A stretch of 64,000 nucleotides of DNA from an uncultured Gammaproteobacteria bacterium (GCA_963843035.1 CAWJIS010000002.1:249243-313242), one strand, 5' to 3'; positions 1,974 through 52,159 are shown, counted from the stretch's first letter. The notes: generated from the sequence alone by a model not told the origin. Made by a program: numbers and translations.

Positions 1974-2183
1974 GTGCGCTCCAGAAAATACACATCCGCG
2001 GCAGCGCCCGCGCCGTGGCGCGGCATCTTGAGGCGCCACCTGACGGTGCTGCTGGCAGTCAAGCTCGCAGCGCTCGCGCTGCTGTGGGCGCTGTTCTTCT
2101 CGCCCGCGCACCGCACCGCCGTCGACGGCCAGGCCGCCGGGCGGCATCTGGCGGTGGCTGCGAAGGAAGGCACCCATGATTGA
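1974..2183 (+). CDS. Small single-TM protein encoded immediately upstream of cydA and overlapping it; function unknown
   Basis: 69-aa ORF with a basic N-terminus and one hydrophobic helix (LTVLLAVKLAALALLWALFF). Its stop overlaps the cydA start by 8 nt (2176..2183), and it is on the same strand. Confidence 0.45.
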   Translation: MRSRKYTSAAAPAPWRGILRRHLTVLLAVKLAALALLWALFFSPAHRTAVDGQAAGRHLAVAAKEGTHD

Positions 2184-3732
2184 CCTCTCGGTCGTGGCTC
2201 TGTCGCGCCTGCAGTTCGCGCTCACGGCCCTGTATCACTTCCTGTTCGTGCCATTGACGCTCGGCCTGTCCATGCTCCTGGTGATCATGGAGGCGGTGTA
2301 CGTCATGACGGGGCGCGAGATCTGGAAGCGCATGACGCAGTTCTGGGGGATGCTGTTCGGTATCAACTTCGCCATGGGAGTGGCCACCGGCATCACCATG
2401 GAGTTCCAGTTCGGAACCAACTGGGCCTATTACTCGCACTACGTGGGCGACATCTTCGGCGCGCCGCTGGCGCTCGAAGGGCTGATGGCGTTCTTCCTCG
2501 AGTCCACTTTCGTCGGCCTGTTCTTCTTCGGCTGGGAGCGTCTCTCGAAGGTGGGACATCTCCTCGTCACCGCCTTGGTGGCATTCGGCTCGAGCCTCTC
2601 GGCGCTGTGGATCCTGATCGCCAACGCCTGGATGCAGCATCCGGTAGGGGCGCAGTTCAACGAGCAGACCATGCGCATGGAGCTCAGCTCCTTCTCCCAG
2701 GTGCTGCTCAATCCGGTGGCGCAGGCGAAATTCGTCCACACGGTCGCGGCGGGCTACGTGGTGGGGTCGGTGTTCGTGCTCGCGGTGAGCGCCTGGTATC
2801 TGCTGCGCGGGCGGAACGTCGAGGTCGCCCGGCGCTCGCTGGCGGTGGCCGCCAGCTTCGGGCTCGCCTGCTCGCTGTCCGTGGTCGTGCTCGGCGATGA
2901 GTCCGGATATCTGGCGAGCGAGAACCAGAAGATGAAGATCGCGGCCATCGAAGCGGAGTGGCACACCGAGCCGCCGCCCGCGGGCTTCACGGTGTTCGGC
3001 ATCCCGGACGATGTCGCGCATACCACGCATGGCGAGCTCAAGGTGCCGTGGGTGCTCGGTCTCATCGCGACGCGCTCGGCCGACGAGCCCGTGCTCGGCA
3101 TCTTCGATCTGGTCGCCCGCGCCCGCACCCGCATCGCGAGTGGTATCGAGGCGCACGCGGCACTGACAGTCCTGCGCGCCCACCCGCAGGACGCCGCCGC
3201 GCGTGCGCTGTTCGAGGAGCATCGCGCCGACCTCGGCTACGGGCTGCTGCTCCTGCGCTACGTCGACGACCCGGCGCGCGCCACACCCGGACAGATCGAG
3301 GAGGCGGCCTGGTCGACCGTGCCCAACGTCGCGGTGCTTTTCTGGTGCTTCCGCCTCATGGTGGGCATCGGCCTGCTGCTGCTGTTGTTGTTCGCGACCG
3401 CCTTCTACCTCTCGGCGCGCCATCGCTTCGAGCGGCATCGCTGGTTCCTGCGAGCCGCGTTCCTGTGTCTGCCGCTGCCGTGGATCGCCGCCGAGCTCGG
3501 TTGGATCGTGGCCGAGTACGGCCGGCAGCCCTGGGCGATCGACGGGGTGCTGCCCACCTTCCTCGGAGCATCGCCGGTCCCGGCGGGCAATATCGCGCTG
3601 TCGCTCTGCGGCTTCGTGATCTTCTATTCGGCGCTGGCGGCCGTGGACGTGTACCTGCTCACCCGGATGATTCGTCGTGGCCCGGACGGGCTGGGGTATT
3701 GGCCGGAGGGGGACGCGCGTGCCCGATTATGA
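2176..3732 (+). CDS. cydA: Cytochrome bd ubiquinol oxidase subunit I
   Basis: 518 aa. Typical CydA N-terminus ([23 protein letters not shown]), GRQPW motif near the C-terminus ([14 protein letters not shown]), followed by cydB. Confidence 0.95.
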
Positions 3733-4855
3733 GACGCTGCGGCTGATCTGGTGGCTGATTCTGGGGGCACTGCTCATCGGCTTTGCGCTCATGGATGGCT
3801 TCGACCTAGGGGTGGGGGCGACGTTCCGCTTCGTCGGCCGCACCGACGAGGAGCGCCGTGCACTGCTCGAGTCCATCGAGCCGGTGTGGGACGGCAACCA
3901 GGTGTGGTTCATTCTCGCCGGTGGTGCGGTATTCGCGGCCTGGCCACTGCTGTACGCCGCTTTCTTCTCGGGCCTCTATCTGGCGATGTTCGTGCTGCTG
4001 GTCGCGCTGATCCTCAGGCCGGTGGGCTTCATCTTCCGGAACAAGATCCACGACCCTCGCTGGCGAAATGGCTGGGACTGGGCCCTGACAATCGGCGGCG
4101 CAGTCCCCTCCCTGCTGTTCGGCGTGGCCTTCGGCAATCTCTTTCTCGGCCTGCCGTTCCAATTCGACGCGCTGCAGCGCCCGGTGTTCACCGGCGGCTT
4201 CCTCGGCTTGCTGCACCCGTTCGCATTGCTGGTCGGGCTGGTGAGCCTCGCGATGCTGATCATGCACGGCTCGGCGTATGCGGCGCTCAAAGTAGGCGAG
4301 CCGATGTCGCGGCGCGCCGCCGCGGTCGGCGGCTGGGCGGCGGTGGTGTTCGTCGCCGGCTTCCTCATCGCCGGCACCTGGGTGGCGAACGCAATCGACG
4401 GGCACAGGATCTCATCGGTGGTCGACACTCTGGGACCGGCGAATCCGCTGGCCAAGCACGTGACGGTCGCAGCGGGTGGCTGGCTCGGCAACTTCCGCGC
4501 GCACGGCGTGCTGTGGCTCGCGCCCGCGGCGGCCGTGATCGCGGCGGCGCTCGCCGGCTCGCTCCTGCGCGCCGGGCGGGCGGGTCTCGCCCTGGTGTCG
4601 AGCGGCGCTGCTGTCGCGGGTACGATCCTGACCGCGGGAATTGCGCTGTTCCCCTTCCTCATGCCCTCGTCCACGCATCCCGATCAAGGCCTCACCGTGT
4701 GGGATGCCTCGAGCAGCGCACGCACCCTCGGCATCATGCTGATTGCCGTGCTGGTGTTCCTGCCCATCGTGCTCGCTTACACTGCCTGGGTATTTCGTGT
4801 GCTCAGGGGCCGGATCACGCTCGAGTCGGTCCGGCAGCACACGGGCCTCTACTGA
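3719..4855 (+). CDS. cydB: Cytochrome bd ubiquinol oxidase subunit II
   Basis: ORF 3677..4855. In-frame GTG at 3719 gives the CydB-type N-terminus (V)[32 protein letters not shown] and overlaps the cydA stop by 14 nt. Confidence 0.9.
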
Positions 4856-10717: not shown

Positions 10718-11035
10718 CTACGCCTGTTTCGGAGTCCAGGAGCTGCACCAGCCAGTGGCCTTGACGGCCTTGCCGGGGAACAGGAGACAGCCGCCCTCGG
10801 CCGAGCCGGCCGCGCCCTGGTAGAGGGTGCAGTTGCCGCACTTACTGCCGGGCTTGGCGCCGCTCGCCTTGCTCGCGTCCGTGGTGTACTTGAGCGCTTT
10901 GGCGGTGGGGTCGTCCGTCGAGACCAGGGGCAAGTCAGCCGCGCTCGCCGTCCTCACGGCGATCGGAATCAGCACCGTGCCGAGAGCGACCTTCTTCAGC
11001 AGCTGACGGCGGGACTCATCGAACACCTGCTTCAT
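10718..11035 (-). CDS. High-potential iron-sulfur protein (HiPIP), Tat-exported
   Basis: Start moved to ATG 11035, which has GAGGAG 6 nt upstream. Twin-arginine signal SRRQLLKK. HiPIP Cys pattern CGNC...C...WC (KCGNCTLY...GGCLLF...GWCSSW). Confidence 0.85.
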   Translation of the reverse strand: MKQVFDESRRQLLKKVALGTVLIPIAVRTASAADLPLVSTDDPTAKALKYTTDASKASGAKPGSKCGNCTLYQGAAGSAEGGCLLFPGKAVKATGWCSSWTPKQA

Positions 11036-11113
11036 GCGATTCTCCTCGACGGCCGTAAACACGCCGCGAAAGATTACGCAAAGCGAGGGCTGCTGGGAAG
11101 TAGTCACAACTAC

Positions 11114-13068: not shown

Positions 13069-13644
13069 ATGTCAGTGTCAGGGCCCAGGCCGCGCAGGTG
13101 GTCAACGTTAGTGCTCGCGGGAGTACTGTCCGCTCTTGCGCTGGCGGCGTGCGAGACGATTCACGTCTCGAGCGACTTTGATCGCACGGCGAGCTTCACC
13201 GGCTACCACTCCTTCGCCTGGCTACCGCGCGAGCACCATGGCACGGCCAACCCGCTGGTGGTACAGCGGGCTCACGATGCCATCCAGTCCGAGCTGACAG
13301 CCCGGGGCTTCACCTACAGCGAAAATGCCGCGGCTGCCGATTTCGTCGTCGACTTTACTATCGGCTCGCGCGAACGCATCGACGTGCAGTCCTACCCGTC
13401 GGCCTACGTGGGCCCTGGCTGGTGGGGCCCTGGCTGGTGGGGTTATCCCTACTGGGGCACGGATGTGGATGTACGCCAGTATCGCGAGGGGACACTTTCA
13501 ATAGACGTCTTCGACGCGCACAGCCACCGGGCCGTGTGGCACGGCTGGGTCAAGAAGGAGCTGACGCGCTCGGACATCGAGAATTCCGCAGCGCCTATTC
13601 GGGCCGCGGTAGCCGCGGTGCTGGCCAGGTTCCCGCCGTCGTGA
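13069..13644 (+). CDS. DUF4136-family lipoprotein
   Basis: AAGGAG 7 nt upstream of the ATG. Lipobox LAAC. ...SSDFDRTASFTGYHSFAW... and ...GTLSIDVFDA...VWHGW are typical of DUF4136. Confidence 0.75.
   Translation: MSVSGPRPRRWSTLVLAGVLSALALAACETIHVSSDFDRTASFTGYHSFAWLPREHHGTANPLVVQRAHDAIQSELTARGFTYSENAAAADFVVDFTIGSRERIDVQSYPSAYVGPGWWGPGWWGYPYWGTDVDVRQYREGTLSIDVFDAHSHRAVWHGWVKKELTRSDIENSAAPIRAAVAAVLARFPPS
13411..13440 (+). repeat. Perfect 2 x 15-bp tandem duplication inside the DUF4136 gene
   Basis: GGCCCTGGCTGGTGG occurs twice back to back, encoding GPGWW-GPGWW. Confidence 0.9.
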
Positions 13645-13702: not shown

Positions 13703-13906
13703 TCAGGAGCGCGTGGTGCGACGTGTTGGGCTCTTTTCCGGCGGATTCCACGGCCGGCCGGTGCGCTCCTCGATGTAGCGTCTGATCAGCCGCCGCACGA
13801 CCTGCGAAGGGGTCGCGTCTTCCTCGGCACACAGGCGCTCGAACAGCGTCTTCTTGCGCGGGTCGATGAGGATGGTCAGGCGTGCGGTGCGAATTTCGAC
13901 AGGCAA
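13703..13906 (-). CDS. Ribbon-helix-helix (CopG/Arc-like) protein
   Basis: ORF 13703..13975 with ARLTILIDPRKKTLFERLCAEEDATPSQVVRRLIRRYIEE, an RHH fold pattern. I prefer the internal TTG at 13906, because GTG 13975 would sit 6 bp from the divergent GTG of the next gene. Start uncertain. Confidence 0.55.
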   Translation of the reverse strand: MPVEIRTARLTILIDPRKKTLFERLCAEEDATPSQVVRRLIRRYIEERTGRPWNPPEKSPTRRTTRS

Positions 13907-13947
13907 TGCGCTACTCCGACGATGGGACGCGCGGCGTCTAATACTAT

Positions 13948-13953
13948 TATAAT
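13948..13953 (+). promoter_or_regulatory. Candidate -10 element for the hydrogenase-like operon
   Basis: Perfect TATAAT within the local AT-rich patch CTAATACTATTATAATCC, 28 nt upstream of GTG 13981. No convincing -35 element. Confidence 0.3.
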
Positions 13954-13980
13954 CCAGCGCGTACTTCAGTAGCACCGTCT

Positions 13981-15990
13981 GTGACGCCCGCGCCGCCGTA
14001 CTCGCCCCTCAACGCCTGCCTGGTGCTCCTGCTTGTCTGGGGAGTCATCGGTCTGGCGGGGCTGTTGCGCCCTACCAGCCTCAAGTTTGTCGGCCGCACC
14101 CTCTTTCCGATCAGCGCGCTATGCGGCGTCGCGCTGGCCGCGGTCGCCGCATGGGGCCTGGGAGTCGCGCCCGAGCGGACGATTCTCGCCATCGGACTGC
14201 CCGACCTTCCGGTACACCTGCGGCGCGACGGGCTGAGCAGCGTGTTTCTGTTCCTGCTCGGGGCGGCCTCGGCGGGCATCTCGATATTTGCCGCGGGCTA
14301 TTTCCGCCGGGGGCACGGCACGTCGGCGGGCCTCTTGTGCCTGCAGTACCACCTGTTCCTGGCGAGCATGGGCGTGGTGATGCTGGCCGACGACGCCTAC
14401 GCGTTCATGGTCTCGTGGGAGACGATGGCGCTGTCGTCCTACTTTCTCGTGACCACGCAGCACGGCTTGCCCGAGATCCGGCGCGCAGGGTTCCTGTATC
14501 TCCTGATCGCCCACGTCGGTGCAACCGCCATCCTGCTCGCCTTTGGCGTGATGCAGGGCGGCAGCTGGCAATTCACCTTCGAGGCGATGCGCGGTGCGCG
14601 GCTGCCAGCGCCCTGGGCCGCCGCCGCGTTCCTGCTCGCACTGTTCGGCTTCGGCGCGAAGGCGGGACTCGTGCCGCTGCACGTCTGGCTGCCCGAAGCA
14701 CATCCCGCCGCGCCCTCGCCGGTCTCGGCTCTTATGAGCGGCGTGATGCTCAAGACCGCCGTATACGGAGTGCTGCGGGTCACCTTCGATCTTCTCGGAC
14801 AGCCGGTGTGGTGGTGGGGCGTCGTGGCGCTCGCCGTCGGGCTGTTCACGGCGCTGTACGGCGTGGTGTTCGCCGCGGCGCAGAGCGACATGAAGCGGCT
14901 GCTGGCGTACTCCTCGATCGAGAACATCGGAATTATTTTCACGGCGTTCGGGCTGGCGATCGTCTTTCGTGGGGTCGGCATGCCGATGCTGGCGGCGCTC
15001 GCCCTGATCGCACTCCTTTACCACTGCCTCAACCACGCCTTCATGAAGAGCCTGCTGTTCCTTGGCACCGGGGCGGTGTTGCATTCGACCGGCGAGCGCA
15101 ATCTCGGTCGCCTCGGCGGCCTCATTCATCGCATGCCGTGGGTGGCATGGCTCACGCTGGTCGGTGCACTCGCGCTCGCGGGCCTGCCGCCGCTCAACGG
15201 CTTCGTGTCGGAGTGGCTGCTGCTGCAGGCCTTCCTGTTCGCCCACGAGGTGCCTCATACCTTCGTCAACATGCTGCTGCCGCTGGGGGCGGCGGTGGTG
15301 GTGCTCGCGGCGGCGCTGGCGGCCTACGTGATGGTCAAGTTCTTCGGCGTGATCTTCCTCGGACAGCCACGGGAAGCTACGCTCGCCCGCGCACACGACG
15401 CGGGAGTCCTGCAACGTCTCGGCCTGGCGTGGCTCGCGGCGGGGTGCATTGCGCTCGCCCTGTTCCCCACTCAGATCATCAACCTTCTGCGCGGCGTCGT
15501 AAGAGAGCTGAGCGGCGCCGATTTGCCGGGACAGGCCGCTCCCTGGTGGCTGCTCGAGCCGATACCCGGCCGCCAGGCCTCCTACTCGGCCCTCGGGTTC
15601 CTCCTCGCCCTGACGGCGGTCGTGCTGCTCACCATCCTCGGCGTACGCCTCTTCTATCACCGGCGGGTACGGCGCGCGGATCCCTGGGATTGCGGCTTTG
15701 CCAGGCTCGATGCCCGCATGCAGGACACGGCCGAGGGCTTCGGTCAGCCGATCCGGCACATTTTCGCGCAGTTCTTCCTGCTGCGGCGTGAGCTGCCTTC
15801 GCCGTTCGATCGGGCTCCGCGCTACCGCGTCGTGATCGGCGACCGCATCTGGCTGCGCCTCTACGAGCCGCTCGGCGGGCTGGTGCAGCGCATTGCGGAT
15901 GGCTTCGCCTGGGTGCAGCAGGGACGCATCGCCACCTATCTCCTCTACAGCTTCATCACGCTGGTGGCGCTGCTCGCGCTGGTGCTATGA
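13981..15990 (+). CDS. HyfB/HycC-like antiporter-type membrane subunit (NuoL/M/N family) of a group-4-hydrogenase-like complex
   Basis: 669-aa polytopic protein with Mrp/NuoL-like segments (WETMALSSYFLV, GAKAGLVPLHVWLPEAHPAAPSPVSALMSGVMLK). First gene of a tightly packed six-gene set. Confidence 0.85.
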   Translation: MTPAPPYSPLNACLVLLLVWGVIGLAGLLRPTSLKFVGRTLFPISALCGVALAAVAAWGLGVAPERTILAIGLPDLPVHLRRDGLSSVFLFLLGAASAGISIFAAGYFRRGHGTSAGLLCLQYHLFLASMGVVMLADDAYAFMVSWETMALSSYFLVTTQHGLPEIRRAGFLYLLIAHVGATAILLAFGVMQGGSWQFTFEAMRGARLPAPWAAAAFLLALFGFGAKAGLVPLHVWLPEAHPAAPSPVSALMSGVMLKTAVYGVLRVTFDLLGQPVWWWGVVALAVGLFTALYGVVFAAAQSDMKRLLAYSSIENIGIIFTAFGLAIVFRGVGMPMLAALALIALLYHCLNHAFMKSLLFLGTGAVLHSTGERNLGRLGGLIHRMPWVAWLTLVGALALAGLPPLNGFVSEWLLLQAFLFAHEVPHTFVNMLLPLGAAVVVLAAALAAYVMVKFFGVIFLGQPREATLARAHDAGVLQRLGLAWLAAGCIALALFPTQIINLLRGVVRELSGADLPGQAAPWWLLEPIPGRQASYSALGFLLALTAVVLLTILGVRLFYHRRVRRADPWDCGFARLDARMQDTAEGFGQPIRHIFAQFFLLRRELPSPFDRAPRYRVVIGDRIWLRLYEPLGGLVQRIADGFAWVQQGRIATYLLYSFITLVALLALVL

Positions 15991-16937
15991 GACCGATCGA
16001 GCTTCTCACCCAGTTGCTGGAGCTCGCGGCCGCGCTCGCCGCGGCGCCGCTGTTCCTCGGCTGGATCAATCAGTGCCGTGCGTGGCTGCAGAACCGCACT
16101 GCCCCCAGCATCTGGCTCCCGTACCGCGGCATTCGCAAGCTCTTCCACAAGGACGCCGTGATTGCAGGGAACGCCTCGCAGCTCTTTCGCCTCGCTCCCT
16201 ACATCACCTTCGGCGCGATGGTGGTTGCCGCCGGCATTATTCCCTCGATGGGCACCCGGCTGCCGTTCACGCGCATCGCCGACGCGATCGCGCTGGTCGG
16301 GCTGCTCGCCACGGCCCGGGTATTCATATCGCTCGCGGCCATGGACATCGGCACCGCCTTCGGCACTCTCGGCGCGCGGCGCGAGATGATGGTCGGGTTC
16401 CTCGCCGAGCCGGCGCTGCTCATGATCATCTTCGTCGCCTCGCTCATCTCCTCGACCACCGCGCTGCCGGCGATCACCGAGCACCTGGCGACCCAGACGC
16501 TCGGCCTCTACCCGAGCCTGGCCTTCACGGCAGTCGCCTTCACCATGGTGCTGCTCGCCGAGAATGCGCGCATCCCGATCGACAACCCTGCCACCCATCT
16601 CGAGCTCACCATGATCCATGAGGCGCCGCTGCTCGAGTACTCGGCGCGTCATCTGGCGCTCATGGAATGGGCGGCCGCGCTCAAGCTCTTCAACTACGCC
16701 TGCATCGGCTTTGCGCTCTTCATTCCCTGGGGAGTGTCGACCGGCCAGGGCGGTCCGCTGGCCCTGTTCGGCTCGATTCCGGTGCTCGCTGCCAAGCTCA
16801 TCGCCGCAGGCGGCGTGCTCGCCCTGATTGAAACCGTGTCCGCCAAGCTGCGGGTGTTCCGGGCGCCGGAGTTCCTCGCCACGGCATTTCTCTTTGCGGT
16901 GCTCGGTCTGCTGGTGCACCTGCTGCTGGGAGCTTAG
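15987..16937 (+). CDS. HycD/HyfC-like membrane subunit (NuoH family)
   Basis: 316 aa, overlaps the previous stop by 4 nt. NuoH/HycD-like helices and the conserved AENARIPIDNPATHLELTMIHEA loop. Confidence 0.85.
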   Translation: MRPIELLTQLLELAAALAAAPLFLGWINQCRAWLQNRTAPSIWLPYRGIRKLFHKDAVIAGNASQLFRLAPYITFGAMVVAAGIIPSMGTRLPFTRIADAIALVGLLATARVFISLAAMDIGTAFGTLGARREMMVGFLAEPALLMIIFVASLISSTTALPAITEHLATQTLGLYPSLAFTAVAFTMVLLAENARIPIDNPATHLELTMIHEAPLLEYSARHLALMEWAAALKLFNYACIGFALFIPWGVSTGQGGPLALFGSIPVLAAKLIAAGGVLALIETVSAKLRVFRAPEFLATAFLFAVLGLLVHLLLGA

Positions 16938-16942
16938 AAGCC

Positions 16943-17629
16943 GTGAGTGGTGTCCCCCTGATCCTGCAGCTGCTGAACTTCTGCGCCGCGCTGTTGCTGC
17001 TGCTGTCGTTCGCGATGCTGTCACAGCGCCGCATCGTGAATCTGGTCAATCTGCTCGCCCTGCAGGGAAGCGTGCTGCTGCTCGCAACGCTGCTGCTGGC
17101 CGCGCGCACCGGACAGCATCACCTGTACCTCTCTGCGGCGCTCACGCTCGGCCTCAAGGTAATCCTGCTGCCGTGGCTGCTGCATCGCCTGATCCGCCGG
17201 CTCGGTGTCTACTGGGACGCCGAGCCGCTGCTCAACATCTCCGGGACGATGCTGGCCGGCGTGCTGATCGTGGTATTCGCGTTCGGCCTCGCCCAGCCGA
17301 TCTCGCAGCTCGCCAGCACCGCGACCCGTAACGCGATCGGCATCGCCGTCGCGGTCGTGCTGCTTTCCTTTCTCATGATGATCACGCGCCGCAAGGCCAT
17401 GTCCCAGGTGGTGGGCTTCCTGTCGATGGAGAACGGCCTGTTCTTCGGCGCCATGAGCGCGACCTACGGCATGCCGATGGTCGTCGAATTCGGCGTCGCG
17501 CTCGATGTGCTGGTGGCGGTGCTGGTGCTCGGCATCTTCTTCTTCCAGATCCGCGAGCAGTTCGACAGCCTCGACCTGCACCACCTGGAGGCGCTCAAGG
17601 AGGAAGCCGCCGGGAGGAGGGGGGGTTAA
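16943..17629 (+). CDS. HyfE-like small membrane subunit
   Basis: 228 aa. FLSMENGLFFGAM matches the hydrogenase-4 component E family motif. Confidence 0.8.
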   Translation: MSGVPLILQLLNFCAALLLLLSFAMLSQRRIVNLVNLLALQGSVLLLATLLLAARTGQHHLYLSAALTLGLKVILLPWLLHRLIRRLGVYWDAEPLLNISGTMLAGVLIVVFAFGLAQPISQLASTATRNAIGIAVAVVLLSFLMMITRRKAMSQVVGFLSMENGLFFGAMSATYGMPMVVEFGVALDVLVAVLVLGIFFFQIREQFDSLDLHHLEALKEEAAGRRGG

Positions 17630-17631
17630 GC

Positions 17632-19089
17632 ATGGAGCTCCTGATCCTCCTGGCAGCCCCACTGACCGGTGCGCTTACGCTCGGGGTCCTCGGAGCGCGG
17701 CGCTTCGCGCCCGAGCTCAACATCGGGTTCAGCCTGCTCACCTTCCTCGCCGCGTGTGCACTTGCAGCGCGCGTCGTCGCCCAGGGCCACCTCGTCCTGG
17801 GCCGCGAGCAGTTCTTCATCGACGCCTTCAACGTGTTCCTCGTGGCACTCACCGCGTTCGTCGGGCTCACGACCTCGATCTTCTCGCGACCCTATATGCG
17901 CGTGGAGTTGCAGCACGGCCGGGTGAGCGCGGGGCGGCTGCGCCTCTACCACAGCATGTATCAGCTCTTCATGTCGACGATGCTGGTCGCGCTGACGACC
18001 AACAACATGGGACTGCTGTGGGTGGCCATGGAAGCCGCAACGCTCTCGACGGTGCTGCTGGTGACACTCTATCGGACCGCCGCAAGTCTCGAGGCCGGGT
18101 GGAAATACTTCATCCTGTGCGGCGTGGGCATCGCCCAGGCGCTCTTCGGCACCATCCTGCTGTACTTCGCGGCGGAGCGCGCCATCGGCGCCGAGGGCGT
18201 GAGCGCCCTGCTGTGGACGCACTTGAACGGCGTCAAAGGGCAGCTCGAGCCGGCGGTGCTGAGCCTCGCATTCGTATTCCTGCTGGTCGGTTACGGGACC
18301 AAGGTCGGACTTGCGCCCCTGCACAACTGGCTGCCGGACGCGCACGCCGAGGGCCCGACGCCGATCTCCGCCGTGCTCTCGGGCCTGCTGTTGAATGTCG
18401 CGATCTACGCGGTCGTGCGCTGCAAGATACTGGTCGAGGGGTCGCTCCACTCCGCGCTCCCCTCACGGATGCTGATGGGCTTCGGACTCCTGTCGGTGGT
18501 GCTCGCGGTGTTCCTGCTCTGGCGCCAGCGTGACATCAAACGCCTGTTCGCCTACTCCTCGATCGAGCACATGGGCATCATCACCTTCGCTTTCGGCATG
18601 GGCGGCGCGGTGGCGAACTTCGCCGCCCTGCTGCACATGACGGTGCACTCCCTCACCAAATCCGCCATCTTCTTTGCCGCCGGGCACGCCTCGCAAAAAG
18701 CCGGCTCGCAGCTCATGGATCAGATCCGCGGCCTCATCACCCTCAGTCCGACCATCGGCTGGGGCCTCATGATGGGGTCGCTCGCCATTCTCGGGCTGCC
18801 GCCCTTTGGCGTCTTCGCGAGCGAGTTCCTGATCCTCACCACCGCGATGCGCGAGCAGCCGTGGGCGACGCCGATACTGCTGGCCGCGCTCGCGGTGGCG
18901 TTCGCCGCCATCTTCGGTCGGGTGCAGCCGATGGTGTTCGGCGAGACGACCGCGAAGCGCCTGCCGCACCCACCGGCGCTGCTGCCGGTGTTCGTGCATC
19001 TCGGCCTGGTGCTCGGGCTCGGACTCTACATCCCGCCTTACCTTGCTGATTGGTATCGGGCGGCGGCGCGTCTGATCGGGGGCGGCTGA
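17632..19089 (+). CDS. HyfF/HycQ-like antiporter-type membrane subunit (NuoM/N family)
   Basis: 485 aa. GTKVGLAPLHNWLPDAHAEGPTPISAVLSGLLLN is the NuoM/N-type motif. 2-nt gap to the preceding gene. Confidence 0.85.
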   Translation: MELLILLAAPLTGALTLGVLGARRFAPELNIGFSLLTFLAACALAARVVAQGHLVLGREQFFIDAFNVFLVALTAFVGLTTSIFSRPYMRVELQHGRVSAGRLRLYHSMYQLFMSTMLVALTTNNMGLLWVAMEAATLSTVLLVTLYRTAASLEAGWKYFILCGVGIAQALFGTILLYFAAERAIGAEGVSALLWTHLNGVKGQLEPAVLSLAFVFLLVGYGTKVGLAPLHNWLPDAHAEGPTPISAVLSGLLLNVAIYAVVRCKILVEGSLHSALPSRMLMGFGLLSVVLAVFLLWRQRDIKRLFAYSSIEHMGIITFAFGMGGAVANFAALLHMTVHSLTKSAIFFAAGHASQKAGSQLMDQIRGLITLSPTIGWGLMMGSLAILGLPPFGVFASEFLILTTAMREQPWATPILLAALAVAFAAIFGRVQPMVFGETTAKRLPHPPALLPVFVHLGLVLGLGLYIPPYLADWYRAAARLIGGG

Positions 19090-19090
19090 A

Positions 19091-20623
19091 ATGACGCAGC
19101 GGGACTCGAATGCGGAGAGCCACGCGCTTCCTGGAGCGCCGCGCTGGCGCACGCGTAACGTCTCGCCGGAGGAATGGGTCCACGCGGCGCAGGAGCTGGC
19201 GGGGGGCGGTGCGCGGCTCGCGGCGCTCTGGACGAACGGCGGCGAGCGCGGCGCGCCGACCGTGCGTGCGGCCTTCTTCACCGGCACGGGCCCGCTCCTC
19301 CTCAACCTGCCCCTCGACGAGACGGATGCGCTTTACCCCGGGCTCGAGGAGCTCTTCCCGTGCGCCGCCCGCATGCAGCGCGCTGCGGCGGATCTCTCCG
19401 GAGTGCGCGCGTCGGATCCCGATACCCGCCCCTGGTTGCGGCACAATGCATGGCCGCCCGGATACCGGCCGCTCGTCGACCCGCCCCCGGCCGAGCACGA
19501 GTCCGGGATCGACGCGTACGAGTTCGTGCGGGTCGAGGGCGAGGGAGTACACGAGATAGCCGTCGGCCCGGTGCACGCCGGCATCATCGAGCCGGGACAT
19601 TTCCGCTTCTCGGTGGTCGGGGAAAAGGTGCTGCGGCTCGAGGAGCGGCTCGGGTACGTTCACAAGGGCATCGAGCGCCGCTTCACCGAGCTGCCCGTCC
19701 TCGAGGCACATCGGCTCGCGGCGCGCGTCTCGGGAGACTCGGCGGTGGCGTTCTCCTGGGCCTATTGCCAGGCACTCGAAAGTCTGGCCGGCGTCACGAT
19801 CCCTGCGCGCGCCGCCTGGCTGCGTGCGCTGTGCCTCGAGCTCGAGCGTGTGGCCAACCACCTGGGAGACCTCGGCGCGCTGGGAAACGACGCCGGCTTC
19901 GCCTTCGGTCTTGCGCAGTTCTCGCGCCTGAAGGAGCGGCTGCTGCGCAGCTGTGCCGAGGCGCTCGGTGAGCGTTATCTCATGAGCGCCATCGTGCCGG
20001 GTGGCAGCGGGGTCGACCTGACGGTCGCCGGTGCGGAGTTGCTGCGCTCGTGTTCTGGTGAGATCGCCCGCGAAGTGCTCCTGCTGCGCACGATCTATGA
20101 TGAGCACGAAGGGGTGCGCGATCGCTTCACCGGCGCCGGCACGATCGCGCCGCTGCTCGCCGCACAGCTTGGCCTGACCGGGCTCGCGGGGCGCGCCAGC
20201 GGGCAGGCATTCGATCTGCGAGTCGACCTGCCCTGCGCGCCGTACAGTGAGCTTGGCGTTACCCGGATCGGCCATCGTGCCGGGGATGTTGCGGCGCGGG
20301 TCGCGATGCGCTTCGATGAGTTGAGTGAATCGTTGCGCCTGATCGAGCACATCATCATCGGGTTACCGCCCGGGCCTCGCGCGCAAGCCGTGCACAACCC
20401 GTCGCCCGGGTTACTCGGCATCGGCGCGATCGAGGGCTGGCGCGGGCCGGTGCTGGTCGCGCTCGAGACCGGGCCCGAGGGCGCCATCAGCCGCTGTCAC
20501 CCGCACGATCCTTCGTGGCAGAACTGGCCGGCCCTCGAGCACGCGATCATCGACAACATCGTGCCGGATTTTCCGCTCATCAATAAGTCCTTCAACCTGT
20601 CCTACAGCGGACACGATCTCTAG
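19091..20623 (+). CDS. HycE/NuoCD-like 'large subunit' lacking the [NiFe]-binding cysteines (Ehr-type)
   Basis: 510 aa: NuoC-like N-terminus plus a hydrogenase large-subunit/NuoD fold (VGPVHAGIIEPGHFRF, ELERVANHL). The L1 position reads RVSGDS (19730..19741) instead of R-x-C-G-x-C. The C-terminus reads SFNLSYSGHDL instead of D-P-C-x-x-C-x-x-R/H. Confidence 0.85.
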   Translation: MTQRDSNAESHALPGAPRWRTRNVSPEEWVHAAQELAGGGARLAALWTNGGERGAPTVRAAFFTGTGPLLLNLPLDETDALYPGLEELFPCAARMQRAAADLSGVRASDPDTRPWLRHNAWPPGYRPLVDPPPAEHESGIDAYEFVRVEGEGVHEIAVGPVHAGIIEPGHFRFSVVGEKVLRLEERLGYVHKGIERRFTELPVLEAHRLAARVSGDSAVAFSWAYCQALESLAGVTIPARAAWLRALCLELERVANHLGDLGALGNDAGFAFGLAQFSRLKERLLRSCAEALGERYLMSAIVPGGSGVDLTVAGAELLRSCSGEIAREVLLLRTIYDEHEGVRDRFTGAGTIAPLLAAQLGLTGLAGRASGQAFDLRVDLPCAPYSELGVTRIGHRAGDVAARVAMRFDELSESLRLIEHIIIGLPPGPRAQAVHNPSPGLLGIGAIEGWRGPVLVALETGPEGAISRCHPHDPSWQNWPALEHAIIDNIVPDFPLINKSFNLSYSGHDL

Positions 20624-20632
20624 GACGCGCGC

Positions 20633-21154
20633 ATGCTCAAGACCCTGCGACAAATTGCCTCAGTCGGAATCGTGACCGAGCCCGCGCCCCGGGCGGACGC
20701 AGCGCTGCGGCTGCGCGCGGCGCTGCAGGCACGCATCCTGGCGGTCCTCGGACGCGCCTTGTGCGTGCGTGCGGTCGATGCCGGTTCCTGCAACGGCTGC
20801 GAGCTCGAGATCCACGCGCTCAACAACCCCTGGTACAACATCGAGGGCCTCGGTATCCGCTTCGTCGCGAGTCCCCGGCACGCGGATCTGTTGCTGGTGA
20901 CCGGTCCGGTCTCGAGGCACATGGAAATCGCCTTACGCCGCACCTACGAGGCCACACCAGACCCTAAGCTGGTGGTGGCAGTCGGGGATTGCGCCTGCAC
21001 CGGCGGGATTTTCGGCGAAGGCTACGCGAGCCGCGGCCGCATCTCCAACGTCATCCCCGTGGATGTGGCCGTGCCGGGGTGTCCGCCCGATCCGACGCGG
21101 ATCCTGACGGGCATCCTCACGGTGCTCGAGGGGCGCTCAATGGCTCCTGGCTAG
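20633..21154 (+). CDS. HycG/NuoB-like small subunit with intact [4Fe-4S] ligands
   Basis: 173 aa. GSCNGCELE, SPRHADLLLVTG, GDCACTGG and PGCPP are the four-Cys NuoB/HycG cluster motif. Confidence 0.9.
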   Translation: MLKTLRQIASVGIVTEPAPRADAALRLRAALQARILAVLGRALCVRAVDAGSCNGCELEIHALNNPWYNIEGLGIRFVASPRHADLLLVTGPVSRHMEIALRRTYEATPDPKLVVAVGDCACTGGIFGEGYASRGRISNVIPVDVAVPGCPPDPTRILTGILTVLEGRSMAPG

Positions 21155-46367: not shown

Positions 46368-48506
46368 TCAGGGCGGCGGCGGGTTGCCGGCCGCACCGAA
46401 CTGGTAGCGGAAGGTGAGCGCCACCAGGTTCACGTTGTCGGCCCACGGCTGCACGCCGAGCGCCAGCAGGTTCGGGATCGTGCCGGGCCCGACATCGCCC
46501 AGGGCCCAGTCGCTCGAATCGTACTTCTCGTGGATGAAGCGCAGGTGTAGCTGTGCGGCCCGGGTCCACTGGTAGCGCAGGTCGAGCCGGACGCTGTCGA
46601 GGCGGCTCCAGTTCTGCGGGAAGGGCTCGGCAACCCCGCCTGCCTGGGTGTTGAAATCGCCGTACGAGGGCGCGTGGAGGTAGTCGAGGGCGAGCGTCCA
46701 GCGCGTCGCCATCACCCACTGGCCGCCGGCGCCGACGTTCCAGAAATGCTCGGAGTCGCCGACCTGCCAGGGCGCCGTCAGCGCTGCGGTGAACCCGTTC
46801 TGAAGCATGTCCAGCCGCTGATAGCCCCCGTCGATGTAGGCGCTGAAAGTCTCGCGCGGCGTCCAGGTGAGCGTGCTGGAAGCGCGCCGCTCATGCACGC
46901 TCTGCAGGCCGAGCTGCGACAGACGATAGTCATCGTTGGCGAAGAATCCTTCGACCGACCACGCGAGCGTCGCGGTCGCCTGCCACGACCCGGTGAGGGT
47001 AAAGAACTCGCGGTCGCGCGGCGCATAATCGAAGGCCCAGACGAGCGGGTTCTCGGCAGGCGGCAGTGCCGAGACAATGAAACCCGAGGTCTTGCGCGAG
47101 GCGTTGCCGCCCTTGAGCGTGAAGGCCAGTCCGTCGAGCGGCTCGAGCGTCGCGCGCACCCAGTTCTCGGTGTCGCGCGTGTCGCTGACGAGCTCGTCGG
47201 GCCCGAAGTGCGTGTTGAGGTATCTGCCGCCGACGCCGACGCGCAGCCAGCGCTCGAGCGCGTAATCGGCGCTCCCCTCGAGGCGCGTCCGGTCCTCGCT
47301 GTAGCGGGGTGTGGTGAACGCGCCCGCGCTCGGGAAGGTGTCGGTGGCCACATAGGCGAGGGTCAGGGGCGTCGTGTGGTCGTCGCGTCCGTCGTAGGTG
47401 GCATCGCCGCGCAGCGCGAGCTTCGGCAGCGGGTGCGCGGCGAGCCCGAGCGCGTAGTGCGACAGATGCACATCGCCGTCGAGCGCGGACGGCGTCGGGA
47501 CGGTGGCACCCGGCAGGGTGCTGAAGGGCAGAAAGCCCTCATCCTGCTTGAGGCTGCCCACGGATGCGGCGTAGGTGAGGGACGCCCCGAGCCAGTTGAA
47601 CGGCATATTGCCCGCCAGGGCGAACTGCTGCAGGTTGTTGTCCGGCGGCAGCGCGAGCCGCCCCTGGGTCGAGCCGGCGACGAAGGGCAGGTAGGGATTG
47701 GCGAACGTCAGGGAATCGATGTCGTTCTTGAACCAGGAGCCCGTGTAGGTGAGGCGCAGGCTGGCGCGGTGATCGGCCCAGGCCGCCCCGGCCTCGACGG
47801 TATCGGTGACGTAGTCGATCGGCTGCGGTAGCTGCGCGGCCTCGGTGAGGAAGCTGCCGCTGAAGAGACCCGTGCCGTCCTTCTCCTCGTGGCGGAACGC
47901 GGCGTGCAGCGTCCACGCGGAGCTCGCGATGTAGGATCCGAGGAGCGAGGCGGTGCGCCGGTCGTATTCGATGTTCACCGGCGCGAGCGTCGCGCCGAGC
48001 GCGCTCATGCCGGCGGTGCTGCCGGCCGGCACCCAGCTGCCGGGCAGGCTGAGATTACCGCTCCCCGCACCCAGGAAGGGCGTGACGCCGGTATCGTAGA
48101 GCCGTGTTGGTATGTCGTCGTAATCGACCTTGACCTCGAAGCGGCCTTCCCTGCCGACCGAGGCGGTTCCCTGGCGCGAAGCGAGCCCCAGATCCTCGAG
48201 ATCGAAGCTCGCGTTGGTGCCGTCGGCGCCGCGGTACTGCCCGGCGGCCGCGAGATCGGCGTACACGGTGCTGTGGTCGATGCCGGTATAGCGGCCGTAG
48301 CTGAAGTTCGCGCCGTGGGCATCCAGGGCGCCGACCTCGACATCCCCGGTGTAGCCCTCGAAGAAAGGACACTGCTCGCACTTCCACGCGCTGGTATCGG
48401 GTGCGGGGCCATCGGCCCAGGCGGCGCCGGCGGCCGCGAGCAGCGCGACCGCACCCGCGAGGCTCGATCGACGGTGGTGGCCCGAGGCAGGCTTCACGAC
48501 AGGCAT
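46368..48506 (-). CDS. mtrB: MtrB/PioB-family outer-membrane beta-barrel porin of a porin-cytochrome complex
   Basis: 712 aa with a signal peptide. N-terminal CxxC motif WKCEQCPFFEGYTG typical of MtrB. Long alternating beta-strand sequence ending in an aromatic-rich C-terminus. 7 nt downstream of the decahaem gene. Confidence 0.85.
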   Translation of the reverse strand: MPVVKPASGHHRRSSLAGAVALLAAAGAAWADGPAPDTSAWKCEQCPFFEGYTGDVEVGALDAHGANFSYGRYTGIDHSTVYADLAAAGQYRGADGTNASFDLEDLGLASRQGTASVGREGRFEVKVDYDDIPTRLYDTGVTPFLGAGSGNLSLPGSWVPAGSTAGMSALGATLAPVNIEYDRRTASLLGSYIASSAWTLHAAFRHEEKDGTGLFSGSFLTEAAQLPQPIDYVTDTVEAGAAWADHRASLRLTYTGSWFKNDIDSLTFANPYLPFVAGSTQGRLALPPDNNLQQFALAGNMPFNWLGASLTYAASVGSLKQDEGFLPFSTLPGATVPTPSALDGDVHLSHYALGLAAHPLPKLALRGDATYDGRDDHTTPLTLAYVATDTFPSAGAFTTPRYSEDRTRLEGSADYALERWLRVGVGGRYLNTHFGPDELVSDTRDTENWVRATLEPLDGLAFTLKGGNASRKTSGFIVSALPPAENPLVWAFDYAPRDREFFTLTGSWQATATLAWSVEGFFANDDYRLSQLGLQSVHERRASSTLTWTPRETFSAYIDGGYQRLDMLQNGFTAALTAPWQVGDSEHFWNVGAGGQWVMATRWTLALDYLHAPSYGDFNTQAGGVAEPFPQNWSRLDSVRLDLRYQWTRAAQLHLRFIHEKYDSSDWALGDVGPGTIPNLLALGVQPWADNVNLVALTFRYQFGAAGNPPPP

Positions 48507-48513
48507 CCCTTTC

Positions 48514-49443: not shown

Positions 49444-49446
49444 CGC

Positions 49447-51924: not shown

Positions 51925-51971
51925 AAACCACTCCCAAGCGCCGTCTTCGCGGCATTCACCCAATTTCATTC

Positions 51972-52129: not shown

Positions 52130-52159
52130 CCACAATTGCATGCAAAGGGGACATCAGCG

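Follow-up and report, generated by a model that had tools for sequence, protein, structure and literature searches.

A predicted Ehr-class, Hyq-type six-subunit membrane complex of a gammaproteobacterium with a hydrogenase-like large subunit devoid of the four [NiFe] cysteines

A 64-kb stretch of DNA from an uncultured gammaproteobacterium, hereafter the window, very probably encodes, at 13981-21154, a six-subunit membrane complex of the Ehr class and Hyq type, the assignment to Ehr following the published descriptions of that class. According to these descriptions, Ehr complexes comprise a cysteine-less homologue of group 4 large subunits and NuoCD whose gene lies with those for NuoB-, NuoH- and antiporter-like subunits (PMC6349859, PMC10284858, PMC4758237). 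The large subunit of the window is of the group 4 type without the Ni-Fe cysteine ligands, its gene accompanies those for NuoB-, NuoH- and Mrp/NuoL-type subunits, as the literature describes for Ehr, and it belongs to a clade that excludes Hyf, Ech and NuoD, which supports the Ehr reading of the original prediction. This reading narrows, as a supported conclusion, to the six-gene Hyq or 'hyfBCEFGI' subtype, which has been noted before in Azorhizobium, Rhizobium and Cupriavidus. What appears to be new here, judging from the alignments, is that three cysteines said to define the alpha-proteobacterial HyqG are absent from the window protein.

The genes form a tight operon (Table 1), in which the large-subunit gene is the fifth, preceded by those for the HyfB-, HyfC-, HyfE- and HyfF-like subunits and followed by that for the NuoB-like small subunit. 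This order, B-C-E-F-L-S, is identical in 80 of 80 species loci with enough flanking sequence, and comparison with the R. leguminosarum locus L081 identifies it as the B-C-E-F-G-I order of Hyq, without hyfA, D and H. Genes for NuoA, J, K, I, E, F and G are absent from the operon.

Table 1. The six-gene operon, its upstream region and the sites discussed in the text (coordinates of the window)
Feature	Position	Strand	Description
Small ribbon-helix-helix gene, candidate regulator	13703..13906	-	about 67 aa, maximal ORF to 13975; Pfam RHH_9 PF19839, E = 2.8e-22; divergent from operon
ATTATAATCCA element with perfect TATAAT (13948-13953)	13946..13956	+	25-35 nt upstream of first gene
HyfB/NuoL-like antiporter-type membrane subunit	13981..15990	+	669 aa; NCBIfam NF005086 'hydrogenase 4 subunit B', 855 bits (cut-off 667); Pfam Proton_antipo_M
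HyfC/HycD/NuoH-like membrane subunit	15987..16937	+	316 aa; Pfam NADHdh, E = 2.7e-28
HyfE-like membrane subunit	16943..17629	+	228 aa; NCBIfam NF008556 'hydrogenase 4 membrane subunit', E = 1.5e-26, below cut-off; operon position conserved
HyfF/NuoM-N-like antiporter-type membrane subunit	17632..19089	+	485 aa; NCBIfam NF005045 'hydrogenase 4 subunit F', 853 bits (cut-off 543)
Large subunit	19091..20623	+	510 aa, ATG start; N-terminal NuoC-like domain and HycE/NuoD-like domain, without [NiFe] ligands
Beta1-beta2 loop G159-F173 (GPVHAGIIEPGHFRF)	19565..19609	+	hydrogenase-type Glu167 kept; NuoD His absent
Former L1 motif R212-V-S-G-D-S217	19724..19741	+	RxCGxC in hydrogenases; characteristic new residue D216
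Former L2 motif and C-terminus N502-L-S-Y-S-G-H-D-L510	20594..20620	+	DPCxxCxxR in hydrogenases; without extension
NuoB/HycG/MbhJ-like small subunit	20633..21154	+	173 aa; Pfam Oxidored_q6; four Cys for one [4Fe-4S] cluster
Small-subunit Cys codons	20789-20791, 20798-20800, 20990-20992, 21080-21082	+	C53, C56, C120, C150

The open reading frame of the large subunit has the extent and length originally predicted, its frame is intact, and it matches its homologues from end to end. A phmmer search of the PDB returned E. coli HycE (7z0s_E) as the best match (E = 2.7e-48, residues 73-507), in agreement with the predicted HycE-type alignment along the length of the protein. Foldseek with an AF2 model likewise ranked HycE first (7z0s_E, TM 0.72), followed by E. 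coli NuoCD, and the homology to [NiFe] group 4 large subunits thus extends over sequence and fold of the whole subunit. The model, which was used for the fold search only, has a pLDDT of 65.8, with values below 50 at residues 130-198 and 474-510. These segments are exactly where the beta1-beta2 loop and the C-terminus lie, and therefore the geometry of the pocket was taken from homology only.

All four [NiFe] ligand positions are occupied by residues other than cysteine, 'rvsgdsavafs' standing over HycE 'rvCgiCgfahs' and 'sfnlsysg' over 'sldpCysC'. The serine codons proposed for L1 (TCG at 19730-19732 for S214 and TCG at 19739-19741 for S217) and the codons proposed for L2 (TCC at 20600-20602 for S504 and GGA at 20609-20611 for G507) were found in place. 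Where group 4 enzymes have RxCGxCxxxH, the protein reads R-V-S-G-D-S-A-V-A-F, with both Cys replaced by Ser and the His by Phe; where they have DPCxxCxx[HR], it reads N-L-S-Y-S-G-H-D-L, with Ser and Gly in place of Cys (HycE: D-P-C-Y-S-C-T-D-R). The C-terminal extension is missing, as predicted: the protein stops at the residue aligned with ...TDR of HyfG, whereas E. coli HyfG runs 32 residues further. It is a well-supported conclusion that the standard [NiFe](CN)2CO cofactor cannot be bound.

The pocket does not look like a canonical quinone site either, which had also been part of the original prediction. The Tyr of R-x-D-Y and the His of the beta1-beta2 loop of NuoD are residues that we take, from established complex I structures, to serve at the quinone site. 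The Tyr of R-[LM]-D-Y aligns with G215 (compared with T. thermophilus Nqo4, 2fug_4, and S. meliloti NuoD) and the His with I166, a position read off an ungapped alignment with textbook residue numbering. The NCBIfam NuoD models gave at best 163.9 bits against a cut-off of 360, so that every NuoD cut-off was missed, and the NuoCD model gave 71 bits against 840. The best PDB match of the NuoH-like subunit is HycD (7z0s_D, E = 3.3e-35), and no complex I NuoH chain in the PDB matches it at E <= 1e-5. A true NuoCD of a second complex I was rejected on these grounds: family cut-offs missed, quinone ligands absent, NuoH of the HycD type and an operon without other nuo genes.

The residues that replaced the ligands are strongly conserved. 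R212, G215, D216, S217 and D509 are invariant in 81 orthologues, position 214 is Ser in 72 and Cys in 8 of them, N502, L503, Y505, S506 and G507 are each kept in 78-80, and the GHDL terminus occurs in 67. The beta1-beta2 loop G159-F173 is invariant across the same 81 proteins and is common to the Cys-containing relatives, too. Among 75 diverse Cys-less representatives, D216 is Asp in 97%, while the Cys-containing relatives have Ala, Val or Ile. Only D216, S504 and G507, among the positions that are at least 90% conserved in these 75 representatives, differ from 15 Cys-containing relatives; D267 differs more loosely between the two sets, and positions 214 and 217 are variable. Beyond the former ligands, only D216 and, more loosely, D267 thus appear to have changed among the Cys-less sequences examined.

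The partner small subunit keeps the four cysteines of its [4Fe-4S] cluster, as the original prediction had stated. In alignments they fall on the proximal-cluster motifs of MbhJ (E = 4.8e-38) and HycG (E = 6.1e-35), follow the pattern of group 4 small subunits (CxxC...C...CP) and are invariant in 76 of 76 orthologues, all of which are 156-198 aa long. A CxxCxxCxxxC motif occurs in none of these 76 small subunits, and no ferredoxin-type Cys motif was found in any frame of the window.

Residues for ion translocation are kept in the membrane arm. The antiporter-type subunits conserve Glu at TM5 and TM12 and Lys at TM7, TM8 (Asn in the F subunit) and TM11, and the HyfB-like subunit of the window keeps the motifs with Lys at TM8. 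In the HyfF-like subunit, K224 aligns with NuoM K234 and E398 with NuoM E407, and N255 takes the place of NuoM K265, the TM8 Lys, an Asn that is also present in E. coli HyfF.

The only conserved neighbour within 6 kb on either side is the small ribbon-helix-helix gene (67 aa and hence below the 100-aa ORF limit), which tblastn placed immediately upstream of the six genes in 49 of 89 loci; its TTG start at 13906 was proposed by reading the sequence. Flanking ORFs of 100 aa or more, up to 6 kb from the operon, contain no conserved partner (Fdh, NuoEFG, hyp or ferredoxin), nothing being common to more than 7 of 81 loci, and tblastn with the hyp, hup, cydA and mtrB genes of the window gave no matches in the other loci. 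No nif genes were seen among the annotated ORFs of the window, and tRNA and Rfam scans of its 64 kb gave nothing. The ATTATAATCCA element, which occurs once in the window against a chance expectation of 0.01 matches, has variants ([AT]T[TG]ATAAT[AC]C) at the same place in most gammaproteobacterial loci and is probably a -10 promoter element and/or an operator. The sigma-70 consensus scan missed its conserved TATAAT because there is no -35 match, and no match to the sigma-54 consensus was found upstream of the operon.

Relatives are encoded in at least 592 species genomes, mostly of aerobic soil Proteobacteria, and form 6438 sequence clusters. A neighbour-joining tree with NuoD as the outgroup places the large subunit with the group 4 hydrogenases (near 4f) and outside NuoD: it joins Cys-containing relatives in a clade without Hyf, Ech and NuoD (94% bootstrap), and only Cys-less sequences lie in its near neighbourhood (93%). 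No alignment put Cys at the L1 or L2 positions, and the tree position lies outside the active-hydrogenase groups and true NuoCD, so the original prediction stands on both counts. Monophyly of all Cys-less sequences, that is, a single loss, was recovered in 0 of 100 neighbour-joining bootstraps with the active-site columns masked, and no claim is made on the number of losses.

The Cys-containing relatives (metagenomic P0179, P0180 and P0215, the L092 operon, and others) are 36-41% identical to the window large subunit and probably represent HydDB group 4f, as inferred from PMC10284858. They share the identical beta1-beta2 loop GPxHAGIIEPGHFRF and the FPLINKSF motif with the window protein, but, unlike it, keep RxCGxC and ELCYxC. 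The sole complete Cys-containing operon examined, L092, agrees with the window in its six genes and their order; its small subunit, however, is 240 aa long and contains, behind the shared N-terminus, a two-cluster insert with two ferredoxin-type Cys motifs that is absent from the small subunit of the window. Because the nearest Cys-bearing relatives include this operon, we infer descent from a [NiFe] hydrogenase of the L092-like six-gene type with two losses, namely of the four Ni-Fe cysteines and of the ferredoxin-like domain of the small subunit.

The conservation makes it a well-supported conclusion from sequence comparison that the large subunit is a working protein under strong purifying selection and, for that reason, not a relic. 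The complex is taken to be functional because it is found in at least 592 species genomes and the residues of pocket and cluster are invariant. Our explanation as a whole may be right or wrong with about equal chance, and its mechanistic part is a tentative and on balance doubtful proposal: a proton-motive-force-coupled oxidoreductase, probably reversible. On one side of the lone Fe-S cluster would be the protein surface, bare of a ferredoxin domain, and on the other a remodelled polar pocket lined by Ser214, Asp216, Ser217, Ser504, Glu167 and Asp267. A soluble one-electron carrier might dock directly at the small subunit, and electrons would pass between the cluster and a substrate bound where the active site used to be, the most plausible candidate being a membrane quinone or quinol as in complex I, while the pocket carboxylates would handle protons. 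The membrane arm, with two antiporter-type subunits, one HycD/NuoH-like and one HyfE-like subunit, would contribute the retained charged residues for ion translocation.

Several observations count against this mechanism. The canonical quinone ligands of NuoD, Tyr and His, are absent; the NuoH-like subunit resembles HycD and not NuoH of complex I, and we know of no FHL-type enzyme that uses quinone. Moreover, with the input domain and the catalytic metal both gone, the cluster may have left the through-wire. Lastly, Azorhizobium hyq is the one source of genetic data on the family, and these data implicate H2 rather than quinone or ferredoxin chemistry (PMC3357923).

With the ferredoxin domain and the Ni-Fe site, the ancestral electron path has lost its two ends, which could also mean that redox catalysis itself was lost, an unlikely reading but one with a real chance. 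The membrane arm would then be an Mrp-type cation/proton translocator or antiporter and the cap a structural or regulatory lid, with a cluster that is either structural or a redox or oxygen sensor gating ion flow, and the fixed carboxylate D216 would replace a charge once created by catalysis. This would fit the lack of a conserved redox partner gene nearby and the higher conservation of the membrane subunits (70-96% identity for the HyfF-like subunit versus 58-86% for the large subunit). Furthermore, the Mycobacterium branderi locus (L084), which resembles Rv0082-87, is Cys-less and has a ferredoxin-fused small subunit without cluster cysteines, which indicates that members of the wider class can dispense with the cluster. 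However, all 76 sequences of the window lineage retain the four cluster cysteines, and the pocket residues are conserved like catalytic ones; a passive lid would need less, though a sensor role would fit as well.

It is distinctly unlikely that the lone [4Fe-4S] cluster reduces another small substrate in the remodelled pocket, coupled to ion pumping, by analogy with MBS. The sulfane-reducing MBS complex of Pyrococcus is a hydrogenase derivative for which direct reduction of the substrate by a cluster has been proposed. MBS is among the solved relatives of the window proteins (6u8y_L, E = 2.3e-18; 6u8y_H, E = 1.2e-33; 6u8y_J, E = 1.5e-19), and the pocket is polar and conserved. Yet the gene neighbourhood yields no candidate substrate, an electron donor is missing too, and the hosts are mostly aerobic soil Proteobacteria and not sulfur-reducing anaerobes.

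An unconventional hydrogenase, as claimed for the 'endo-hydrogenase' Hyq of Azorhizobium, would oxidize or evolve H2 against the quinone pool at a cysteine-free site, perhaps with another metal held by Asp216, Glu167, Asp267, Ser or His, or with the Fe-S cluster itself; we regard this as very unlikely here. We know of no H2-activating site without Cys-bound Ni/Fe or the FeGP cofactor, and the number of cysteines at the ligand positions is zero. The claim draws on A. caulinodans mutants: deletion of hyq slows diazotrophic growth, and in a hupSL mutant about 80% of the microaerobic H2 output depends on hyq and persists in a nifK mutant (PMC2650096; PMC3357923). Thus, the original statement that no substrate or function is known for the class holds for biochemistry, a literature search having found no structural or biochemical work on Ehr, Hyq or Rv0082-87, but it does not hold for the Hyq subtype in general, for which these H2-related deletion phenotypes exist (PMC2650096, PMC3357923). 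These phenotypes speak for a hydrogenase, as do the 47-49% identity and the derived motifs shared with two species listed with hyq, the proton-relay Glu E167 and an entire beta1-beta2 loop unchanged relative to the Cys-containing relatives, and the gain of conserved carboxylates able to bind a hard metal. Nevertheless, the Azorhizobium evidence is in vivo genetics only, with 20% of H2 evolution kept by the double mutant, and the authors themselves called the site 'speculative' and a Ni-Fe centre 'uncertain, if not unlikely' (PMC3357923). The HyqG cysteines of Sprecher et al. correspond to Gly265, Ile497 and Leu503 in the window protein and therefore cannot be a family-wide catalytic site, and in other genomes the operon is unlinked to hyp or hup genes. 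That the complex truly converts H2, at a cysteine-free site made of the invariant Asp216, Glu167, Asp267, Ser and/or the adjacent [4Fe-4S] cluster, is highly improbable. It should be noted that no result obtained here explains the Azorhizobium hyq genetics away.

A misassembled gene or a decaying pseudogene derived from a Hyf-type hydrogenase has nothing but the absence of cysteines in its favour and a negligible probability, being refuted by the intact frame, the conservation of the substitutes in 81 orthologues and 75 divergent representatives, the conserved operon structure with its fixed gene order, and an internal control, a canonical [NiFe] large subunit at 62063-63772 of the same window with correct Cys motifs (RICGVC and DPCMAC).

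Ehr/Hyq is the least understood branch of the superfamily of complex I and energy-converting hydrogenases. Annotation pipelines routinely name its members 'hydrogenase 4', 'formate hydrogenlyase' or 'NuoC', and since Ehr/Hyq is very common in soil Proteobacteria, this mislabelling leads to an overestimate of the H2-evolving potential in metagenomes. The role of the single Fe-S cluster and the Asp pocket would show how a redox-driven ion pump was re-purposed after the loss of its catalytic metal, and the function of both, once known, would settle the 15-year-old claim of a cysteine-free 'endo-hydrogenase'. If that claim were true, it would amount to a third biological route to H2 activation, in hundreds of aerobic soil Proteobacteria. 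What the window adds is a comparative constraint and not a discovery: any mechanism proposed for the whole family has to do without the three HyqG cysteines and a ferredoxin domain and has to explain the invariant Asp at the x of CGxC.

Complex I shares with the window proteins the fold and the domain fusion, as in E. coli NuoCD (TM about 0.66-0.69), the lack of a Ni-Fe site and one cluster at the N2 position, and D267 aligns with the NuoD Asp that partners the quinone-site His. The cluster motif, however, is the hydrogenase-type CxxC, unlike that of complex I, and a HycD-type protein takes the place of NuoH. The best solved relatives of the large, small and NuoH-like subunits are HycE, HycG and HycD of E. 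coli FHL (7Z0S), at 28-30% identity, and the key residues of the antiporter-type subunits match those of E. coli HyfB and HyfF. HycE and HyfG carry Ni-Fe ligands and a C-terminal extension, whereas the window large subunit carries neither; HyfA/HycB, HyfH/HycF, HyfD, a maturation protease and a link to formate dehydrogenase (FdhF in E. coli) have no counterpart in the window operon, as seen by comparison with the E. coli and Rhodovastum loci. Ehr, with its group-4-like large subunit without Ni-Fe ligands and its NuoB-, NuoH-, HyfE- and NuoL-like subunits, agrees with the window (PMC7894505, PMC6349859, PMC10284858), but it is a broad label, and its mycobacterial subtype differs by the ferredoxin-fused, cluster-less small subunit.

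The Hyq operon hyqRBCEFGI of Azorhizobium caulinodans (AZC_4360-4355) has six structural genes in the same order as the window (Ng et al. 2009, PMC2650096; Sprecher et al. 2012, PMC3357923). R. leguminosarum and A. brasilense are listed with orthologous hyq operons (PMC3357923), and their proteins were compared in place of A. caulinodans HyqG. The window large subunit is 47-49% identical to them, and the derived motifs RxSGD[ST] and NKSFNxSY[SA]GHDL are common to all. As in the window, the Hyq large subunit (about 504-510 aa) is a NuoC::NuoD fusion without both CxxC motifs, and the small subunit (about 175 aa) has four Cys. In contrast, the 'completely conserved' Cys of Hyq (258, 491 and 497 in A. 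caulinodans; C259, C491 and C497 in R. leguminosarum) are G265, I497 and L503 in the window protein, and Burkholderiales proteins also lack them. Hyq is under NifA/sigma-54 control and has the HTH gene hyqR; upstream of the window operon there is no match to the sigma-54 consensus, and a divergent RHH_9 gene stands in place of hyqR. The host of the window is a Steroidobacteraceae-like gammaproteobacterium, unlike the alpha-proteobacterial Hyq carriers.

In Cupriavidus metallidurans CH34 (Rmet_4666-4671) and C. necator H16 (H16_A2196-A2201), 'hyfBCEFGI' clusters consist of the same six genes as the window operon; the authors who noted the cluster regarded it as an 'incomplete' hyf operon unlikely to have a role in lithotrophy (Janssen et al. 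2010, PMC2864759). Among cultured organisms, Cupriavidus and Burkholderia have the nearest relatives; the best-aligned segment, which spans about 84% of the query, is about 58-66% identical. Several Burkholderiales carry the RHH gene on the operon's own strand, whereas it is divergent in the window. Cupriavidus and Burkholderia share RxSGDS and NLSYSGHDL with the window protein and have Ile or Leu where Hyq has Cys, and Cupriavidus 'hyfBCEFGI' differs from the window operon by divergence at the class level only.

The open reading frame of the large subunit is real (ATG start, 510 aa), and the codons at its former ligand positions are those originally reported (TCG 19730, TCG 19739, TCC 20600 and GGA 20609). 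In a phmmer search against all PDB chains the best match was E. coli HycE (7z0s_E, E = 2.7e-48, residues 73-507), with MbhL, Nqo4 and many NuoD/NDUFS2 chains ranking below it, which bears out the proposed HycE-type alignment. The alignment matches RVSGDS to RVCGIC and NLSYSG to DPCYSC; therefore, Ser, Ser, Ser and Gly stand at the four Ni-Fe ligand positions, as the predicted loss of all four cysteines implied. Comparison with Nqo4 and rhizobial NuoD placed the R-x-D-Y Tyr, which had been called missing, at Gly215, and the His of the beta1-beta2 loop at Ile166; both are quinone-site residues in complex I. The absence of a C-terminal extension likewise holds, in that the protein ends at the residue aligned with ...TDR of HyfG and HycE, whereas E. 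coli HyfG continues for 32 residues. The original observation was confirmed in every detail.

Among 81 aligned orthologues, R212, G215, D216, S217, D509 and the loop VGPVHAGIIEPGHFRF are invariant, position 214 is Ser in 72 and Cys in eight, and N502, L503, Y505, S506 and G507 are each retained in 78-80. When one genome per GTDB species was searched, at least 592 genomes had a relative. The best 80 come from gammaproteobacterial MAGs, Steroidobacteraceae among them (62-86% identity), and, at about 60%, from Burkholderiales (including Cupriavidus necator, Rhodoferax, Ramlibacter and Accumulibacter). A canonical [NiFe] large subunit 41 kb away in the window reads RICGVC...DPCMAC, so Cys motifs are faithfully reported by the assembly, and these intact motifs, together with the conservation among orthologues, rule out an assembly error or a relic.

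The vacated site is a polar pocket with new carboxylates. D216 takes the "x" place of CGxC, which in standard hydrogenases is the Val that faces Ni where the gas channel ends inside the protein (Val74 in the D. fructosovorans enzyme), and its carboxylate therefore most likely points into the pocket. A fold search with an AF2 model, which is of poor quality at the pocket, ranked HycE first and NuoCD next, and confirms the architecture and no more. Some Cys-less sub-lineages have a single Cys at differing places (cluster representatives P0202, P0219, P0223, P0243, P0246, P0249, P0253, P0255 and P0258; also P0123, P0126 and P0130), reading either N-L-S-Y-C-G in the old L2 motif or C-G-D-S, the first L1 Cys alone being kept; no consistent alternative ligand set was found among these single-Cys sub-lineages.

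Features of the operon, its upstream region and other redox genes (window positions)
Feature	Position	Strand	Remarks
Cytochrome bd oxidase subunits I and II	2176-4855	+	
HiPIP gene	10718-11107	-	3 kb upstream of operon
DUF4136 lipoprotein gene	13069-13644		
Ribbon-helix-helix gene, 67 aa	13703-13906	-	Pfam RHH_9, E = 2.8e-22; within 330-bp gap upstream of operon
ATTATAATCCA	13946-13956	+	perfect -10 box, in 75-bp gap between RHH_9 gene and first operon gene
HyfB-like	13981-15990	+	NF005086, 855 bits, above cut-off
HyfC/HycD/NuoH-like	15987-16937	+	HycD closest, E = 3.3e-35
HyfE-like	16943-17629	+	
HyfF-like	17632-19089	+	NF005045, 853 bits, above cut-off
Large subunit	19091-20623	+	510 aa
NuoB-like small subunit	20633-21154	+	173 aa
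MtrCAB-like extracellular electron-transfer module and dihaem cytochrome	46368-52765		
MtrB/PioB porin	46368-48506	-	
Multihaem MtrA-like cytochrome	48514-49443	-	
MtrC/OmcA-like outer-membrane cytochrome	49447-52041	-	
Dihaem cytochrome c	52136-52765	+	
hypE	53197-54204	-	
hypF	54219-56516	-	
hypD	58234-59496	-	
hypB	59604-60392	-	
hypA	60415-60786	-	
Canonical group-1-like [NiFe] uptake hydrogenase	60813-63772	+	
Its small subunit	60813-62066	+	TIGR00391, 425 bits
Its large subunit	62063-63772	+	PF00374, 768 bits; RICGVC/DPCMAC and C-terminal extension

The large-subunit gene is the fifth of a tightly packed six-gene operon, the order of which is identical in all 80 loci with enough flank, and the six-subunit complex is conserved and selected. 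The four cluster cysteines expected in the small subunit are indeed kept (C53, C56, C120 and C150, aligning with the proximal-cluster motifs of MbhJ and HycG) and are invariant in 76 of 76 orthologues, pointing to one conserved [4Fe-4S] site. Ion-translocating NuoL/M/N-type proteins are defined by the charged residues TM5 Glu, TM7 Lys, TM11 Lys and TM12 Glu, all of which are retained by both antiporter-type subunits; at TM8 the B subunit has Lys, and the F subunit has Asn, exactly like E. coli HyfF. The key residues of both subunits are invariant across the family (F-subunit K224 and E398 align with NuoM K234 and E407), and the ion-translocation signature, as judged from them, is intact. The membrane subunits are better conserved than the large subunit, and the NuoH-like subunit matched no complex I NuoH chain in the PDB at E <= 1e-5.

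A HMMER pass over 1.84 billion cluster representatives yielded 6438 related clusters, and motifs were compared in 94 full-length sequences among the best 150. The ligands are missing from 75, which have the signature [S/A/C]-G-D-[S/T/E/N] plus N-L-S-Y-[S/A]-G-x-D-L, and 15 retain all four cysteines (RxCGxC...ELCYxC) together with the distinctive GPxHAGIIEPGHFRF and FPLINKSF motifs. The only positions at least 90% conserved in the 75 that differ from the 15 are D216, S504 and G507, with D267 more loosely, and thus remodelling was confined to the active site. Rooting a neighbour-joining tree on NuoD gave the branching order Ech, Hyf, Cys-containing relatives, Cys-less sequences. When the tree was repeated with the six active-site columns masked (100 bootstraps), Cys-less and Cys-containing sequences formed a joint clade without Hyf, Ech and NuoD in 94%, and the smallest clade holding the window protein and rhizobial HyqG consisted of Cys-less sequences alone in 93%. 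The protein falls inside neither an active hydrogenase group nor true NuoCD. Strict monophyly of all Cys-less sequences was recovered in 0% of the 100 bootstraps, and a single loss event is therefore not claimed.

The contig L092 encodes a Cys-containing relative among Bacillota-like neighbours and agrees with the window operon in all six genes and in their order. The L092 small subunit, of 240 aa, has two ferredoxin-type Cys motifs inserted right after the shared MLK..L N-terminus; small subunits of the window lineage have 156-198 aa and a ferredoxin-type motif in none of 76. Compared with L092, the window lineage has neither a catalytic metal site nor an electron-input domain and retains the proximal cluster alone, and this one sister operon suggests that both may have been lost from an L092-like ancestor. 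The Cys-less type of mycobacteria (M. branderi, similar to Rv0082-87) differs in having kept a ferredoxin-like extension and lost the proximal-cluster cysteines, and therefore "Ehr" is heterogeneous. Small subunits without these cysteines, e.g. GSNGSDEWE...GTDAISGG...PGAPA, occur at L084 9309-10103 (M. branderi) and at L090 2434-3258, where the partner large subunit oddly retains all four Ni-Fe cysteines.

No conserved neighbour gene emerged when flanking ORFs of 100 aa or more were clustered, and no hyp, hup, Fdh, NuoEFG or NuoI-like genes lie near the operon in other genomes. In 49 of 89 loci the RHH_9 gene immediately precedes the operon; it is read away from the operon in Gammaproteobacteria and in the operon's own direction in several Burkholderiales, and its product is probably the regulator. 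ATTATAATCCA occurs once in the window and recurs with the same placement in relatives, as does an AGTAGCA-like stretch that precedes the start of the first gene by about 10 nt; no obvious Shine-Dalgarno motif was found before that gene. The HiPIP and DUF4136 lipoprotein genes are common only to the closest relatives (L001, L003). The hyp genes alongside the uptake hydrogenase provide the genome with machinery for Ni-Fe maturation at a distance of 32-43 kb from the Cys-less operon, a combination that echoes the presence of both HupSL and Hyq in Azorhizobium; in other genomes such linkage was not seen in flanks of up to 10 kb. A search of every frame of the window gave no ferredoxin-type CxxCxxCxxxCP motif.

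Ni-Fe ligands, the quinone Tyr/His, a ferredoxin domain and linked partner genes are all absent. We tentatively prefer, at low confidence, a pmf-coupled, probably reversible oxidoreductase, in which the small subunit itself would be the docking site of a soluble one-electron carrier and a quinone/quinol or other small substrate would use the old active-site pocket. A redox-silent or redox-gated ion translocator is unlikely, its favouring points being that both ends of the ancestral electron wire are gone and that conservation is stronger in the membrane subunits. It is less likely again that the cluster would directly reduce another substrate, by analogy with MBS. A real cysteine-free hydrogenase is very improbable, and its strongest form even more so, the sole favouring point being the genetics of Azorhizobium, in which about 80% of the H2 produced under microaerobic conditions is hyq-dependent, even in a nifK mutant (PMC3357923).

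The name Ehr was introduced for Geobacter (Coppi), and Marreiros et al. 2013 extended it to a general class, which is cited as hydrogenase-related complexes without Ni-Fe ligands and of unknown function (PMC6349859, PMC7894505, PMC10284858, PMC4758237). The window's six-gene set matches the hyqRBCEFGI "endo-hydrogenase" of Azorhizobium caulinodans, in which HyqG is a 504-aa NuoC::NuoD fusion without either CxxC motif and HyqI has four cysteines (PMC2650096, PMC3357923); the catalytic site of HyqG was called speculative by its authors (PMC3357923). A tblastn search of plasmids yielded the counterpart operons in R. leguminosarum and A. brasilense (47-49% identity), and RxSGD[ST] and NKSFNxSY[SA]GHDL are common to all three proteins. 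Three cysteines were described as "completely conserved" in HyqG (258, 491 and 497; Sprecher et al., PMC3357923). The window protein has Gly265, Ile497 and Leu503 in place of their R. leguminosarum counterparts C259, C491 and C497, and the three cysteines are likewise missing from Burkholderiales homologues; thus they cannot be a family-wide catalytic site. The genome papers of C. metallidurans CH34 and C. necator H16 mention the same "hyfBCEFGI" cluster, for which a role as lithotrophic hydrogenase was judged unlikely (PMC2864759). No NCBIfam model reaches its cut-off on the window large subunit (best 163.9 bits versus 360), so a dedicated curated model for the family is absent. At L081 (R. 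leguminosarum) and L082, the PGAP label of the Cys-less large subunit is "NADH-quinone oxidoreductase subunit C", and the partner subunits are labelled "hydrogenase 4 subunit B/F" or "formate hydrogenlyase". The class is already known, widespread and mislabelled by annotation pipelines, and the Ehr reading of the window operon, supported by the absent ligands and the matching gene set, can be narrowed to the Hyq/"hyfBCEFGI" subtype.
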